From Candidatus Poribacteria bacterium (GTDB lineage Bacteria > Poribacteria > WGA-4E > WGA-3G), in assembly GCA_022824265.1 (NCBI GenBank), contig JAJEAG010000051.1, forward strand, positions 12,818 to 76,817: a stretch of DNA of 64,000 nt, read 5' to 3'. The notes under the pieces are model-generated. The model was not told where the DNA came from, did no database searches, and was given only the letters and a program-made list of their open reading frames with translations. Below are positions 11,461 through 31,359 of the stretch, in pieces; positions within the stretch are counted from its first letter, which is position 1; every line of letters begins with the position of its first letter. Position numbers and translations under genes: made by a program.

Positions 11461-12438
11461 ATGAGCGTTTTCCCTATATATCGTCCCAGACGATTACGTT
11501 CAAATGAAAACCTAAGACGACTCGTCCGAGAAACACATCTGTCTGTAGATGACCTTATATATCCGATGTTTGTTGTTCATGGACAGGACACTGCAAATGA
11601 GATTACTTCCATGCCGGGATGCTACCAATACTCGGTGGATAGACTCGTAGAGGCTGCGAAAGAACTTGTTTCGCTTGGTATTCCTGGAACTATCCTTTTC
11701 GGAATTCCTGAGAATAAAGACTCACACGGTTCTGAAGCATACGCGGATGATGGAATTATTCAACAAGCAGTTCGTGCCATAAAAGATACAGTGCCAGACC
11801 TACTTGTAATCACAGATGTTTGTCTATGTGAATACACCGATCATGGACATTGTGGTATCATTGAAGATGGAGAGGTGCAGAACGATCCAACGCTTGATCT
11901 GCTTGTTCAAGAGAGCGTGTCGCATGCACAGGCAGGGGCAGATGTTATCGCGCCATCAGACATGATGGATGGACGTGTCGGTGCAATTCGATATGCCTTA
12001 GACGAGGAAGGATATGAGAACATTCCAATAATGGCATACTCAGCGAAATATGCGTCTGCATTTTATGGACCCTTTCGTGATGCCGCAGAGTCCGCACCGC
12101 AATTTGGTGATCGTCGTTCGTATCAGATGGATCCAGCAAACTCAGAGGAGGCATTAAGAGAAGTAACGCTTGATATTGAGGAGGGTGCTGATATCGTAAT
12201 GGTGAAACCTGCACTCTCATATCTTGATGTTATAAGTCAAGTGAAAGCAGAATTTCAGATGCCTGTTGCAGCCTATAACGTCAGTGGTGAATATTCCATG
12301 ATAAAAGCAGCCTCACAAAATGGGTGGATTGATGAAAAACGTGTTGCTTTGGAGGTCCTAACGAGTATTAAACGTGCTGGTGCAGACATAATCTTGACTT
12401 ACTTTGCAAAGTCGGTTGTTGAATGGCTTGAGAATTAG
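11461..12438 (+). CDS. hemB: Porphobilinogen synthase (delta-aminolevulinic acid dehydratase)
   Basis: Characteristic N-terminus [20 protein letters not shown], active-site region, and about 325 aa length. Confidence 0.93.
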
Positions 12439-12504: not shown

Positions 12505-12575
12505 GAAGTGATGCGTTTGTAGTGGTGCAATTTATTACCAAGTCAACACCAAATGCGAGTATAGCGTTGATTCAC
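12505..12575. repeat. Divergent partial copy of the dispersed intergenic repeat core (see 21531..21790)
   Basis: GCGTTTGTAGTGGTGCAATTTATTACCAAGTCAACACCAAATGCG is roughly 75% identical to the core AACGCGTTTGTAGTCGCGCAATTCATTGCCAAATCAACGCCAAATGCGC. Confidence 0.45.
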
Positions 12576-12749
12576 TGGTCACGACCCGTGGAGTACCTAG
12601 CGCGTATTCGATGTTGATTAGGCTATAGTAAAGAATAAACCAAGCGAGTCGAAATATTTATTTTATAGTAAATTTCGTAATTACTTGGACACTTTGGTAG
12701 GTTCGGTTTCCTATCCTGAAACAGTGCGTCAGACACTAAAAAAAATGTC

Positions 12750-13124
12750 TTGAAACCGCATCTTCGTGAACAATGGGTGATCCCCCCTTCCGAAGATGCT
12801 GCATTTGTGAATGCGATGGAGCAAGTGCCTGATCTTTATCAGAAACCTTTAGATACGGATGTTCCTGTTGTGAACATGGATGAACAATCTGTAACGCTAA
12901 GGGATCACCTGCGTGCTCCACGACCTGCTAAACCGGGTCAAGTAGAACGCGTGGATTCTGAATACAGACGCAATGGCACAGCATCAGTTTTTCTTTTCAC
13001 AGAGACCCTTTTTGAATTTCGGTATGTGTCTGTTCGGGAGCGTCGGACTGCGGTGGATTGGACAGAGGAGGTAAAGGTGCTATTGGAGGATGTGTATCCG
13101 AAGGCAAAGCGTGTGATTTTATAG
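12750..13124 (+). pseudogene. IS630-family transposase fragment (DDE_3 / ISAzo13-like type), central part
   Basis: LKPHLREQWVIPP and DSEYRRNGTASVF motifs; ends ...AKRVIL. The upstream region contains frameshifted continuation. Confidence 0.7.
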
Positions 13125-13168
13125 TGACATTTAGAATTATTGATACATTTTTTATTTTTTGTTAGAAT

Positions 13169-13429
13169 ATGTTTCCCATGGCATATTCACCCGATGGACG
13201 AAAACGCATTTTAGATTATGTTGCAGCTGGCGGGAAAAAATCTGAAGCATCCCGTCTGTTTTCCGTCGCACGCTCAACTATTGATAGGTGGTTAGCAGCT
13301 GAGAACCCGTTTGCAATTAGAAAAACAGGACCCAAAAAAATGAGAGTGATTGATGAGGAGGCAATCAGAAAACATGTTGCTGATTTCCCCGACTTAACAC
13401 AAAAAGAACGTGCTGCACATTATCATTAG
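13169..13429 (+). pseudogene. IS630/Tc1-type transposase N-terminal HTH fragment (classical ISY100-like type)
   Basis: AYSPDGRKRILDYVAAGGKKSEASRLFSVARSTIDRWL resembles ISY100-type N-termini. Truncated after about 86 aa. Confidence 0.6.
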
Positions 13430-13975
13430 CTAATCCGTGGACAGGTAAGGAAATGTCCGCTGTCCAAATAGAATTGCTGTAAATCGCGGAGATCTACTAT
13501 GTGCTGGTTATGGATAATTCTCGTCATCATAGTGAACATAGTCATAAACTGGACTCTGATAATTACAACGCCGGAGGGCTGGCTTATAGGAGTGATTGCT
13601 ATAATTGTCATAATTCTCATCATATCTTATAGAATAAATAGAAACTATTGACTATCTATTTCCGTGTCCTCCCCTTATCCTGGGGCACCACGCATTCGTT
13701 TCAGCGATATGCAGCACACGTTCTAAAAATAATACGTCGCCTTATACAACTTGCCCGATCAGCTGAGTCAATCTCCCGCAGTGCATCAACGAAAATCCTG
13801 TTTACCGCATTAACCTGATTGAAATCCGTGATATTGCCATACCTCGTAAAATGAAATTGGTACTATAGTTGACATTGAAATTAAAGAGACACATTTCTAT
13901 AGGAGTGATCTCCGAATCGCGACAAAACTCACTGATAGTCAGGGATCGGAGTTTCCTCCTACAACTCAAAATGTC

Positions 13976-14314
13976 TTGTTAATTCTAAAGTTCACTATAG
14001 TATGTGATAACCTAAATACACACACCCTTTCATCCTTGTATAAAGCATTTCCTGAGGCAGAAGCACAAAGATTGTGTGCTCGTTTGGAAATCGTGTATAC
14101 GCCTAAACACGGCAGTTGGTTGAATATTGCGGAGATAGAACTGAGTGTGCTAACACGACAGTGTTTGTGTCGGCGTATTCCCGATATAGAAACATTACAA
14201 AGAGAGACGCAGGCGTGGCAAAAACGACGAAATGCAGAGCAAAAGCAAGTAGATTGGCAATGGACCATGGCAGATGCGCGCATCAGATTAAAACATTTAT
14301 ACCCAAAAGATTAG
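13976..14314 (+). pseudogene. IS630-family transposase C-terminal DDE fragment, continuation of 12750..13124
   Basis: VCDNLNTHT and TPKHGSWLNIAEIELSVL motifs. Reading ...KRVIL then VCDNLNTH gives a contiguous transposase, interrupted here by an 850-bp insert. Confidence 0.7.
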
Positions 14315-14393
14315 GATGGACAAAGCACTATTGTGGTATCCCAACCGCTCCTCGTTATGTTAATTAGTCGGGTTTCGTTCAAAGAATACCGAA

Positions 14394-16025
14394 CTACGAA
14401 TTATTATCTGTTTTGCCGTAGCCACCACCCCCAGGTGTTTCAATCTGAATAACGTCACCTTCGCGAGCAGAAAGAGTAACTTTCCCTTCAAGCAGTTGTT
14501 CCTCCTCGTCACGGATTAGCACATTCCGTCCTAACTGACCCGATTCCCCACCTTGCAATCCATAAGGATGAAACATTCTCCGTTCAGAAAGGATAGTAAC
14601 CTCTGCATCAGTAAGAAGCCTGAAAGAACGCACAATCCCGGACCCACCTTGAAATTCTCCTGCTCCACCAGTACCACGCCGAATCGAATAACTCTCAACC
14701 TGTAGCGGATAACTCGTTTCAATTGTCTCAATAGGTGTATTCATTGTATTCGTCATGTGTGTATGAATGGCATCAATTCCATCGCAAGTTGGACGTGCAC
14801 CCATACCACCAGCGATGGTCTCATAATAGGTAAAATCCCGTCCTCGTAATACATCATGTCCACCTATTGTAATGTTATTCATAGTACCGCTACTTGCAGC
14901 AGGAATTAGGTCAGGACACGCCTGCGCCAACGTACCAAAAAGCACATCAACGATACGTTGTGAGGTCTCAACATTTCCACCAGCTACTGCAGCTGGAAAT
15001 TTAGCATTGATAACACTACCTTCAGGAGCAATAATTTGGATCGGTTCCATACATCCAGCATTGGATGGCACATCAACGCCAGCAACACATCGGAACGTAT
15101 AAAAGACAGCTGAGACTGCAATTGCATATATCGCATTAACGGAGCCTCGCACCTGTTCTGATGTACCTGTAAAATCTACAACTGCTGTGTCATCCTTAAT
15201 TTCAATAGAAACCCGTATTTCTATCGGTTCATCAGTTATTCCATCGTTATCCATATAATCCGAAAATGTATAGATTCCATCATTAATTTCTCGTAAGAAT
15301 GATCGCACCATGCGGCTGGAATAGGAGCATAACGCTTGCATGTAAGACTCGATTTCTGGAACACCGTATTTGGACACCAATTCCTGTAATCTACGTTCAC
15401 CGATACGGTTGGCTGCGAGTTGTGCCTCCATGTCCCCATGCCGTTCTGTTGGTGTCCGTACATTGGCAAGAATGAATTCCCACATGTCAGAATCCAGTTC
15501 ACCACCTCTGACAAGTTTTACTGGTGGAATACGGATACCTTCCTGAATTACACTCGTCGCTAAAGGCATAGAACCGGGAGTCATACCACCCACATCTGCG
15601 TGATGTGCGCGGTTCGCTACATAGAACGTAGGACAAACCGCAGATTCTTCTCCAAAGACTGGGGCAACCAAAGTTATATCTGGAAGGTGTGTACCACCAC
15701 GATATGGATCATTAAGCACGATCATATCTCCAGGTTCCATTTCGGTATGTTCTATTGCTGCCAAAACCGAAAGCGGCATTGAACCCAGATGGACAGGTAT
15801 ATGTGCAGCCTGTGCTACCATCTGTCCTGAACCATCAAAAACTGCACAAGAGAAATCAAGACGTTCCTTGATGTTCGGTGAGAAAGCAGTCCGTTGCAGT
15901 GTAACACCCATCTCTTCTGATACTGAAGTAAGGAGATTTTTATAGAGTTCTAATTTTATTGGGTCAAAGTTCATGAGATGTTGGTTTAGGTAAATTGTGT
16001 TTAGAAGTATCTTGCATTTTAACAT
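14394..16025 (-). CDS. hyuB: Hydantoinase B / 5-oxoprolinase family protein (HyuB). The true start is possibly the internal Met (MNFDPIKLELYKN, ~nt 15972).
   Basis: FDPIKLELYKN...LQRTAFSPNIKERLDFSCAVFD and NDPYRGGTHLPDITLVAPVF signatures. Confidence 0.85.
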   Translation of the reverse strand: MLKCKILLNTIYLNQHLMNFDPIKLELYKNLLTSVSEEMGVTLQRTAFSPNIKERLDFSCAVFDGSGQMVAQAAHIPVHLGSMPLSVLAAIEHTEMEPGDMIVLNDPYRGGTHLPDITLVAPVFGEESAVCPTFYVANRAHHADVGGMTPGSMPLATSVIQEGIRIPPVKLVRGGELDSDMWEFILANVRTPTERHGDMEAQLAANRIGERRLQELVSKYGVPEIESYMQALCSYSSRMVRSFLREINDGIYTFSDYMDNDGITDEPIEIRVSIEIKDDTAVVDFTGTSEQVRGSVNAIYAIAVSAVFYTFRCVAGVDVPSNAGCMEPIQIIAPEGSVINAKFPAAVAGGNVETSQRIVDVLFGTLAQACPDLIPAASSGTMNNITIGGHDVLRGRDFTYYETIAGGMGARPTCDGIDAIHTHMTNTMNTPIETIETSYPLQVESYSIRRGTGGAGEFQGGSGIVRSFRLLTDAEVTILSERRMFHPYGLQGGESGQLGRNVLIRDEEEQLLEGKVTLSAREGDVIQIETPGGGGYGKTDNNS

Positions 16026-21530: not shown

Positions 21531-21790
21531 ACAAGCAGTAGGCGCGCTTTGTAAGCGCGCTGGACTTCAATAGTAATACCATTTCTAAATAATAACTTCT
21601 CATTAACAAAAAACGCGTTTGTAGTCGCGCAATTCATTGCCAAATCAACGCCAAATGCGCCAAATCAACGGTATGAATGCCATTGGCATGCCCCGTATGG
21701 CATTTGTCGCCTCGGACATTCCGTAGGGGCGAGGTCTCCCCGCCCGTATTCTCACATACAGTCCCGTAGGTCGGGTAGAGCGAAGCGCAA
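21531..21790 (+). repeat. Composite dispersed intergenic repeat, copy R1: GC hairpin, ~85-bp core, and GTAGGGGCGAGG palindrome module
   Basis: GGCGCGCTTTGTAAGCGCGC + TGGACTTCAATAGTAA + ATTTCTAAATAATAACTT...GCCAAATGCGC + GTAGGGGCGAGGTCTCCCCGCCCGTATTCTCACATACAGTCCCGTAGGTCGGG. Nearly identical to 26384..26610 apart from two indels. Confidence 0.7.
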
Positions 21791-26383: not shown

Positions 26384-26610
26384 ATTTCTAAATAATAACT
26401 TTTCATCAACAAAAAACGCGTTCGTAGTCGCGCAATTCATTGCCAAATCAACGCCAAATGCGCTTATGGCATTTGTCGCCTCGGACATTTGGATTTATTA
26501 AGTCTCAAAATGTGGTTTTATTTATTAGAATTGGTATTACATTCTCGTAGGGGCGAGATTTCCTCGCCCGCATTCTCACATACAGTCCTGTAGGTCAGAA
26601 CGAGTGAAGT
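26384..26610 (+). repeat. Composite dispersed intergenic repeat, copy R2 (direct copy of R1)
   Basis: ATTTCTAAATAATAACTTTTCATCAACAAAAAACGCGTTCGTAGTCGCGCAATTCATTGCCAAATCAACGCCAAATGCGC ... GTAGGGGCGAGATTTCCTCGCCCGCATTCTCACATACAGTCCTGTAGGTC. Confidence 0.7.
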
Positions 26611-31015: not shown

Positions 31016-31153
31016 AATTGCTCCTTACATCAATATAGCAGAAATTGTAATACATCATTGTGGAATTGTCAATTGGAAAACAGATCCAACATAGAGCAGA
31101 GCCATTCAGTTTTCCAAATCCTATTATCTTTAATATTAAGCCTTCCTTTGTAG

Positions 31154-31174
31154 AAGTACTCTCCGAATCGCGAC
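31154..31174. repeat. Short repeat ..CTCCGAATCGCGAC.., possibly a solo IS-end remnant
   Basis: The same 14-mer, with similar flanks (CTTATCCT nearby), occurs at 13903..13923 immediately upstream of the IS630 C-terminal fragment. Confidence 0.35.
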
Positions 31175-31208
31175 CTCTTATCCTATAAAACTTGGTTCAG
31201 ACTACATC

Positions 31209-31232
31209 GTAGGGGCGAGGTCTCCTCGCCCG
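31209..31232. repeat. REP-like palindrome GTAGGGGCGAGGTCTCCTCGCCCG
   Basis: Perfect inverted repeat GGGCGAGG-TCT-CCTCGCCC. Family member; followed by a TATTTACCCCACACC...CTGTAGGAGCGAC module. Confidence 0.6.
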
Positions 31233-31325
31233 TATTTACCCCACACCCTCTTCTGTAGGAGCGACTTTCAAGTCGCGACTTTACGACATATTTCTACGAT
31301 TTAACGAAAACTGAATGGCTCTGAA

Positions 31326-31359
31326 CATAGAGGCATAGAGGCATAGAGGACATAGAGGA
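31326..31359. repeat. Tandem direct repeat (CATAGAGG-like, about 4 units)
   Basis: CATAGAGGCATAGAGGCATAGAGGACATAGAGGA, about 70 nt upstream of the Gfo/Idh gene at 31430. Confidence 0.6.

Follow-up and report, generated by a model that had tools for sequence, protein, structure and literature searches.

Introduction

ISY100 (ISTcSa), an insertion sequence (IS) of Synechocystis sp. PCC6803, is 947 bp long, has 24-bp repeats and a 282-amino-acid (aa) transposase, and generates a TA duplication (Feng & Colloms, 2007, PMC2170065); 30 bp of each end are enough for its transposition (PMC2170065). IS630 has CTAG/TA as its target (Tenzen et al., as cited in PMC2170065), and in ISFtu1 a frameshift is annotated as needed for expression (PMC1978527). 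Here we compare with these elements a locus in a 64,000-nucleotide stretch of Candidatus Poribacteria bacterium DNA (contig JAJEAG010000051.1; hereafter the window, whose own numbering is used throughout). We hold with high confidence that the DNA between its hemB and hydantoinase-B genes is, as a whole, best explained as the wreck of two, probably three, mobile units of the IS630/Tc1-mariner type. A non-autonomous ISY100-like derivative, which includes a unit resembling a miniature inverted-repeat transposable element (MITE), interrupts an outer, 5′-truncated IS of the IS630 family with two open reading frames (ORFs), and the locus has no capacity for transposition or transposase coding. An earlier reading of the letters alone (the sequence-only reading) had already proposed an insertion of one IS630-family lineage within another and the loss of any functional transposase, and both proposals hold: an insert encoding a PF01710 domain lies in a DDE_3 element with a TA duplication, the outer copy is 5′-truncated and split, and the inner one lacks orfB.

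The outer element and its filled TA site

The halves of the outer element occupy 12714-13121 and 14000-14328, and the two ORFs that fall in them (12750-13124 and 13976-14314) are both present in the ORF list. The first part of orfB (12750-13121, plus strand), which carries DDE_3 transposase domain sequence and ends in ...KRVIL, is 96.6% identical in its DNA to a Logan contig (L001), and the second part (14000-14314, plus strand), from VCDNLNTH... to the stop codon, is 94.9% identical to the same contig. Joined at ...KRVIL|VCDNLNTH, they yield a 228-aa peptide with one continuous match to PF13358 (DDE_3; profile positions 2-146 of 146, E 6e-22, 78 bits against a cutoff of 28.6) and a likewise continuous match to NCBIfam transpos_IS630 (NF033545; profile positions 110-299 of 299, 131 bits against a cutoff of 100). 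An uninterrupted 228-aa protein from another sample (P0001), encoded on L001, is 95% identical to the joined peptide over 100% of its length, and a further homologue on a 204-kb NCBI contig (P0002) is 91% identical. The DNA of L001 runs unbroken across the join as GTGATTTTAGTATGTGAT or, taken more widely, …GTGATTTTAGTATGTGATAAC…. That the two fragments join seamlessly into one DDE_3 transposase, as had been claimed, is thus borne out.

What separates the halves is an insert of 876 bp (13122-13997). L001 presents the empty site with a single TA (GATTT-TA-GTATG), and the window reads GTGATTT-TA-[876 bp]-TA-GTATGTGAT at the same place, the left and right copies of the target-site duplication lying at 13120-13121 and 13998-13999; both the duplication and the empty site are read directly from the letters. 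The termini of the insert, TAGTGACATTTAGAATTA… and …TAATTCTAAAGTTCACTA, form inverted repeats of 26-32 nt, with 26 of 32 nt complementary (81%), and the IS terminal motif has two occurrences in the 64-kb window, both at the insert ends. The sequence-only reading had recognized an insertion here, though it gave its size as about 850 bp, and had suggested a search for TA duplications and terminal inverted repeats together with a comparison with intact copies; the insert has both, and the comparison, here made with copies from other samples, supplied the uninterrupted L001.

Judged by its profile matches, the outer element is a member of the IS630 family. NCBIfam scans of the remnant and of an intact relative returned IS630 as the best match, plus a weak IS481 match, and no ISAzo13 model matched the remnant at E ≤ 0.01 or the intact relative at E ≤ 1, so the label "ISAzo13-like" attached to it earlier is not supported. 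Intact outer relatives are 1253 bp long, with three equal-length copies in one 5.3-Mb genome (L004-L006). The ends of the family, CTAGTGGAGTGTCTACAC… and …GTGTGGACAGTCTACTAG, give C|TA…TA|G flanks (L002, L004-L006); the right ends in L002-L006 read …GTGGAC(T/A)GTC(C/T)AC|TA|G and the matching left ends CTAGTGGA…. These relatives encode an OrfA of 146-158 aa, with helix-turn-helix (HTH) domains of the HTH_23/29/32 kind, and an OrfB of 223-228 aa; their conceptual OrfAB products are 374-386 aa long, and the L002 fusion scores 214 bits on NF033545. In the window, the right inverted repeat (…TAGGATGGACAAAGCAC) followed by its flanking TA at 14329-14330 occupies 14308-14330 on the plus strand, and the match to L001 runs as far as 14330.

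The outer element resembles IS630 of Shigella sonnei and ISFtu1 in its score on the NCBIfam IS630 equivalog model and in its DDE_3 domain, while the C|TA…TA|G flanks of its intact relatives recall the CTAG/TA target of IS630, and its two ORFs, with a frameshift required for expression, recall ISFtu1. It differs from both in having a longer N-terminal region with HTH_23/HTH_29/HTH_32 rather than PF01710, in a putatively longer spacing (~41 residues) between the second Asp and the Glu and, as far as the window copy is concerned, in being 5′-truncated and split. The assignment of catalytic residues is motif-based throughout, a protein alignment across subgroups having been rejected as too divergent (20% identity); on this basis the CDN motif of the outer orfB would hold the second catalytic Asp.

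At its 5′ side the outer element is visibly incomplete. By BLASTN, homology to IS copies extends no further left than 12714, which leaves just the final 36 nt of orfA. Intact copies have their left end ~550 bp upstream of the A-run described below, a point that here would fall inside an intact hemB; ~510 bp of the element, comprising the left repeat and most of orfA, has therefore been deleted. Abutting the breakpoint on the host side is the first arm (GGTTCGGTTTCCTA, 12700-12713) of a palindrome resembling repetitive extragenic palindromes (REP-like), recognized through a match to a related genome (L032): window 12664-12723 is 78% identical to L032 876-818, and L032 continues into the full palindrome GGTTCGGTTTCCTAACCGAACC. 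To account for the loss we propose a separate deletion that broke the DNA at 12713/12714, within this palindrome. Two candidates for a surviving left end were considered and rejected, namely the TAGTGG… at 12520, which is part of a dispersed 45-85-bp intergenic repeat found also at 21615 and 26418, and the TATAGTAAA… motifs at 12622 and 12664, which belong to an intergenic repeat unit common to L032.

A conserved frame change between orfA and orfB

The last 36 nt of orfA (...PETVRQTLKKMS*; 12714-12749, plus strand), where BLASTN matches to L001-L006 begin at 12714-12716, run into orfB through a run of eight As (A8; 12738-12745, plus strand). Here the window orfA (…ETVRQTLKKMS*) and orfB (…LKPHL…) overlap on CTA AAA AAA ATG, and a −1 slip on A_AAA_AAA would produce …TLKKNVLKPHL…, which is collinear with the single-ORF proteins P0057 (…VLKNNELQPHL…) and P0066 (...TPKKNALRPH...). 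An A7-A8 run with the −1 overlap of orfA and orfB is present in all intact relatives (L001-L006), at 78-96% DNA identity, and products of OrfB alone, 219-230 aa long, make up the majority of the top 120 homologues. The sequence-only reading had noted the frame change upstream of 12750 and taken it for decay; the frame change is real, but because the same A-run and overlap are conserved in the intact relatives, we read the A8 at 12738-12745 as a conserved recoding site and not as decay. The site would probably act by programmed −1 frameshifting or by transcriptional slippage, and both frameshift decoding and transcriptional realignment have been documented in IS630-family elements (PMC5009743, PMC1978527).

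The inner family carries an A7-A10 run at its own orfA/orfB junction as well. Among ISY100-like copies in the fetched loci (L014-L037) the run varies from A7 to A10, and within one genome (L020-L026) it has 8, 9 and 10 As, which leaves some copies in frame and others needing a shift. Such variation would fit a recoding site that is prone to slippage and possibly phase-variable.

The insert as a bounded ISY100-like derivative

Within the insert, the left 304 bp (13122-13425, plus strand) correspond to the left part of a 904-bp ISY100-like IS630 element that is common in Poribacteria metagenome-assembled genomes (MAGs), with 13120-13425 being 95% identical to positions 1-305 of intact copies (L007, L009, L010). 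They comprise the left inverted repeat (13122-13147, plus strand), a promoter-like TTGATA-17-TAGAAT (13140-13168, plus strand) that is conserved in the family, and a truncated orfA (13169-13429, plus strand) that encodes the HTH DNA-binding domain only, in 86 aa as against 126 aa in intact copies. The 86-aa product matches PF01710 (HTH_Tnp_IS630) at positions 1-80 of 119 (E 1e-14, 55 bits against a cutoff of 21.3) and is 92% identical to the 126-aa P0121. Homology to relatives stops at 13425 in every case, and OrfA breaks off at residue 85 at the junction 13425|13426, where there is no TA. Besides this left part, only the right ~35 nt (13963-13997), which align with the right end of the family, match the intact IS. 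The exact 86-aa product, sought at other loci, is recorded at this locus alone.

Intact relatives of the insert encode a 126-aa OrfA and a DDE_3 OrfB that overlap in the −1 frame. One contig (L010, 908 bp) consists exactly of one element plus its flanking TAs and thus sets the length of the IS at 904 bp; the conceptual −1 fusion is 282 aa long and scores 136 bits on NF033545. Where the fetched Poribacteria loci hold other copies of this family with both ends, these sit at unrelated sites and every one has TA|…|TA flanks. By its two ends and its TA duplication, the insert is taken to be a bounded IS630-type element of the ISY100-like subgroup. A remnant of orfB was sought in 13426-13997 by tblastn with the family OrfB and by Pfam, and none was found. 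Since intact relatives have the DDE domain, the insert is classed as a non-autonomous derivative and not as an IS in the strict sense. The sequence-only reading was right that the insert carries the HTH N-terminus of an ISY100-type IS630 transposase. As an account of the whole it fell short, since we find a bounded element with both ends, a TA duplication and, in the MITE-like unit described below, a third set of IS630-type ends.

Compared with ISY100 by the figures published for the latter, the parent IS of the insert is of similar size (904 vs. 947 bp), has imperfect terminal repeats of ~24-26 nt and a strict TA duplication, and encodes a transposase of 282 aa with an N-terminal PF01710-type HTH followed by a DDE domain, for which the motifs suggest DD34E spacing. 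That short ends suffice in cis for ISY100 would explain the mobility of MITEs and of derivatives lacking orfB. ISY100 has one ORF, however, whereas the Poribacteria IS requires a −1 shift on its A8 run to fuse OrfA (126 aa) with OrfB; moreover, the window copy has lost orfB and contains filler and a MITE-like unit instead.

Variant copies of the ISY100-like IS occur elsewhere in the fetched loci. Identical 103-bp TA-flanked MITEs, each made of the two ends of the IS, lie at L025 3511-3613 and L026 3617-3719 (Poribacteria OZ240244.1), each ~100 bp downstream of a full-length copy. L037 is an internal-deletion copy, and L008 and L012 diverge from the IS at position 589. In L031 (2716-4178; Poribacteria CAXXTN010000001.1) a 1.46-kb element with a gene for a 439-aa transposase of the ISKra4 family (NF033572, 247 bits) interrupts the IS at ~position 265.

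Filler and a MITE-like unit in place of orfB

The interior of the insert is of two kinds. The first, at 13426-13842, is ~420 bp of filler that stands in place of orfB and gave no similarity in any search: neither ten reading-frame pieces against Pfam, nor Rfam, nor tblastn with the family OrfB, nor BLASTN against all fetched loci, nor an exact 23-mer scan of Joint Genome Institute (JGI) metagenomes returned a match, and a minus-strand frame found none in a word-indexed search of a 5.8-billion-protein set. The filler contains a 50-aa hydrophobic ORF (13499-13651); two of its stretches are hydrophobic, and a GGAG precedes its ATG by 7 nt. HMMER against 1.84 billion representative proteins found no credible homologue for it (two low-complexity matches, E ~1e-4), and the ORF may be spurious in such AT-rich DNA. 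After the filler, 13843-13865 (plus strand; …GGTACTA) might be the degenerate right inverted repeat of a derivative lacking orfB, as suggested by 15 of 23 matches to a family variant of that repeat (ATCATAAAATCTAAAGTTTACTA), with a position-specific P of ~1e-3 before correction for the eight variants tested.

The second is a 132-nt palindromic unit (13866-13997, plus strand) flanked by TA (13864-13865 and 13998-13999). It opens, directly after a TA, with a second left-type end internal to the insert (13866-13891, plus strand). Between this end and the reverse complement of the right end, 19 of 26 positions agree, a value equalled by 2 of 2000 random fillers. The right inverted repeat of the 876-bp insert as a whole (~13963-13997, plus strand), which aligns with the right end of the family, also belongs to the unit. 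The unit folds into a single end-to-end hairpin (−15.9 kcal/mol, z = −2.0). Because an internal left-type repeat is absent from the intact inner IS, where it was sought, 13866-13997 looks like a separate MITE-like unit. It is short and non-coding, and has IS-related repeats, a target duplication and hairpin potential, as MITEs do; a further trait of MITEs, presence in multiple copies, is not seen: searches of the 64-kb window and of the other fetched loci, and a scan of JGI metagenomes for an exact 21-mer, found the unit at no second place.

Taken together, the insert and its 132-nt unit resemble MITEs derived from IS630 and deleted Tc1/mariner elements in having IS-type inverted repeats, TA flanks and a hairpin, and in lacking a transposase. 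They differ from these in that neither has a second copy that we could find and in that the interior consists of unrelated filler rather than reflecting a simple deletion. Relative to the 103-bp MITEs of L025 and L026, the left end of the 132-nt unit is far more diverged from the IS.

How the nest may have formed

In the history that we propose, a 1.25-kb outer element of the IS630 family would have come to sit at a TA (right flank 14329-14330), its transposase being made through a −1 fusion of OrfA and OrfB on an A7-8 run. A non-autonomous element of 876 bp would then have been cut and pasted into the TA of the orfB codon pair TTA|GTA, duplicating the TA at a point two codons before the conserved CDN motif. 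The insert would descend from the 904-bp ISY100-like IS, of which it would have kept the left 304 bp and the right end, with ~420 bp of filler and the 132-nt MITE-like unit in place of orfB. Having no DDE domain, it was either moved in trans by intact copies or decayed after landing. The order of these events, like the mobilization in trans, is our reconstruction.

We favour, if only moderately, a composite mobilized in trans, the ends of which would be the left repeat of the IS and the right repeat of the MITE. If both internal features are real, an orfB-less derivative X (13122-13865) abuts a MITE M (13866-13997), and it is possible that M landed in the terminal TA of X at a donor site, after which the pair transposed by the left repeat of X and the right repeat of M. 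It is the TA counts at all junctions that lead us to favour this composite: its formation at the donor site predicts the observed …GGTAC-TA-[M]-TA-GTATG… exactly, whereas insertion of M after X had become resident predicts one more TA on one side. Non-autonomous forms have precedent in the family, in which other deletion derivatives and the 103-bp MITEs exist. A bolder version, in which the 876-bp composite moved as one piece by an IS630/Tc1-mariner transposase and carried ~420 bp of captured foreign DNA, among it the ORF of a small membrane protein with its ribosome-binding site, strikes us as doubtful.

Several observations weigh against this account. The TA duplication of the outer element itself cannot be seen here, its left end having been deleted, although the right TA is present. 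The right-end-like sequence at 13843-13865 is weak (15 of 23) and falls short of significance when the filler is searched without restriction of position. No second copy of the 876-bp derivative, the filler or the MITE-like unit was found in the window, the other fetched loci or JGI metagenomes (exact 21-23-mers), nor of the exact 86-aa product, so the mobility of the derivative is unproven. Finally, the only grounds for placing intact donors in the same cell are copies from sister samples (L009-L012) and the clustered single-nucleotide polymorphisms (SNPs) described next.

Assembly, surroundings and other repeats

The nest lies between hemB (ALAD; 11461-12438, plus strand) on its left and the hydantoinase-B gene (14394-16025, minus strand) on its right, and the relatives of both mobile elements were, without exception, from Candidatus Poribacteria MAGs, which points to a genome of the sponge-symbiont type. 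The structure of the nest is common to at least two assemblies: an independently assembled ENA metagenome scaffold of 125 kb (KELL22-1_SAMN22237344 scaffold_247) is 99.95% identical to the window over the 10 kb compared and has the identical nested structure. The Logan contig of the locus, an independent assembly, stops at 12703. The only five differences between window and scaffold_247 in those 10 kb cluster at 14055-14173, within the outer IS, and three of the five are alleles of the uninterrupted copy L001; the cluster suggests read mixing or gene conversion among the IS copies of the population.

The sequence-only reading had singled out a 14-mer of the insert as recurring alone near 31 kb, possibly as a solo IS end. 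The exact repeat exists, although the positions given for it (13903 and 31154) were each off by 7 nt: CTCCGAATCGCGAC stands at 13910-13923 and 31161-31174. Its recurrence is at chance level, given that in 58% of the 876-bp segments of the window one or more 14-mers occur again elsewhere (composition-aware expectation 0.64 per segment) and that the extended match amounts to merely 24 nt at 87.5%. In the insert, the 14-mer lies 75-88 nt from the end, in the stem of the MITE-like hairpin and not at a terminus. The second copy is part of a 227-bp element (31097-31323) that is of a different kind and unrelated to the insert, and so cannot be called a solo IS end.

That 227-bp MITE-like element has perfect 18-nt terminal inverted repeats (CAGAGCCATTCAGTTTTC) and is flanked by 9-bp direct repeats (AACATAGAG), followed by tandem GCATAGAG units (region 31088-31358). 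Inside it lies a small palindromic unit (TAGGGGCGAGG…CCTCGCCCGTA), found also at ~21722 and ~26545. A dispersed intergenic repeat of 45 nt, at 84-87% identity, occurs at 12513-12557, 21615-21659 and 26418-26462, and between the sites at 21615 and 26418 it extends to ~85 nt (…TTTCTAAATAATAACTT…AACGCGTTTGTAGTCGCGCAATTCATTGCCAAATCAACGCCAAATGCG).

Alternative explanations

A real possibility, if less than a probable one, is that a complete 904-bp ISY100-like IS landed in the outer element and decayed in place, its interior and right part being later replaced by insertions, the MITE-like unit among them, and deletions, so that an 876-bp unit was never mobile. The closeness of 876 bp to the intact 904 bp fits such decay in situ, as does the failure of every search to find the derivative a second time, and the family has been damaged in place elsewhere, by the ISKra4-family intruder in L031 and at the point of divergence in L008 and L012. 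On the other hand, a MITE entering either right-boundary TA of a resident element should produce a run of three TAs on one side. Only two are observed at 13862-13867 and at 13996-14001, and an additional loss of 2 bp would be needed. Nor could deletion alone produce ~420 bp of unrelated filler, and the left junction of that filler is not at a TA. For these reasons we continue to prefer, with the reserve expressed above, the composite assembled at a donor site and mobilized in trans. It would be surprising if the 86-aa HTH protein encoded at 13169-13429 had instead been kept as a domesticated regulator, such as a repressor that binds the ends of active members of the IS family. Its ORF is open, preserves the first HTH (PF01710 1-80) and lies behind the family-conserved promoter-like site, and OrfA-type products of two-ORF ISs can be regulators (PMC5009743); yet its stop codon was made by the junction, the last 40 residues of OrfA are gone, and the six nonsynonymous against eight synonymous codon differences from an intact copy indicate no strong constraint on a product recorded at one locus only.

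The wider setting has been read differently as well. The sequence-only reading regarded the region as an old integration hotspot with a pile-up of decayed elements, in which the frameshift at 12750 was decay and the 14-mer at ~31160 a solo IS end. Two or three mobile units within 1.6 kb and an exactly repeated 14-mer do invite such a view, but we consider it very unlikely: intact copies share the frame change, a recurring 14-mer is expected by chance in more than half of segments of this size, and the element that contains the second copy of the 14-mer differs in its ends and has a 9-bp duplication. Furthermore, the 64-kb window contains no further IS630-type terminal motifs, and no other IS630 coding remnants were found in it. 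Nothing tested supports a hotspot; nesting requires merely a TA in dispensable or neutral DNA, and, as L031 illustrates again, one IS inside another is the expected fate of TA-targeting elements there. A metagenome assembly chimera, in which repeated IS copies were mis-joined into a nest present in no single genome, would be consistent with the SNP cluster within the IS, three of whose alleles are those of L001 and which hints at some read mixing, and with the break of the Logan contig at 12703. It is nevertheless highly improbable, as both junctions of the insert are exact, with inverted repeats and a TA duplication set against the single TA of the empty copy, as at least two assemblies agree on the structure, and as mis-joins do not make target duplications. 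The nest of two, probably three, mobile units thus remains our account of the locus.

Implications

The significance of the locus lies mostly in annotation, for it is an ordinary patch of dead IS DNA in sponge-symbiont Poribacteria. IS debris of this kind, including truncated copies, orfB-less derivatives and MITEs, should be masked as pseudogenes and not annotated as three short "genes". Wider interest is limited to the possible mobilization of captured DNA by a composite, which is unproven; if true, the composite would be a bacterial counterpart of cargo-capturing "Pack-MITE"-type elements. For IS630-type elements more generally, a change of frame between orfA and orfB is to be read as a design feature and not as evidence of decay, and in sponge-associated Poribacteria two IS630 lineages have been active, each with an A-run recoding site for its expression.

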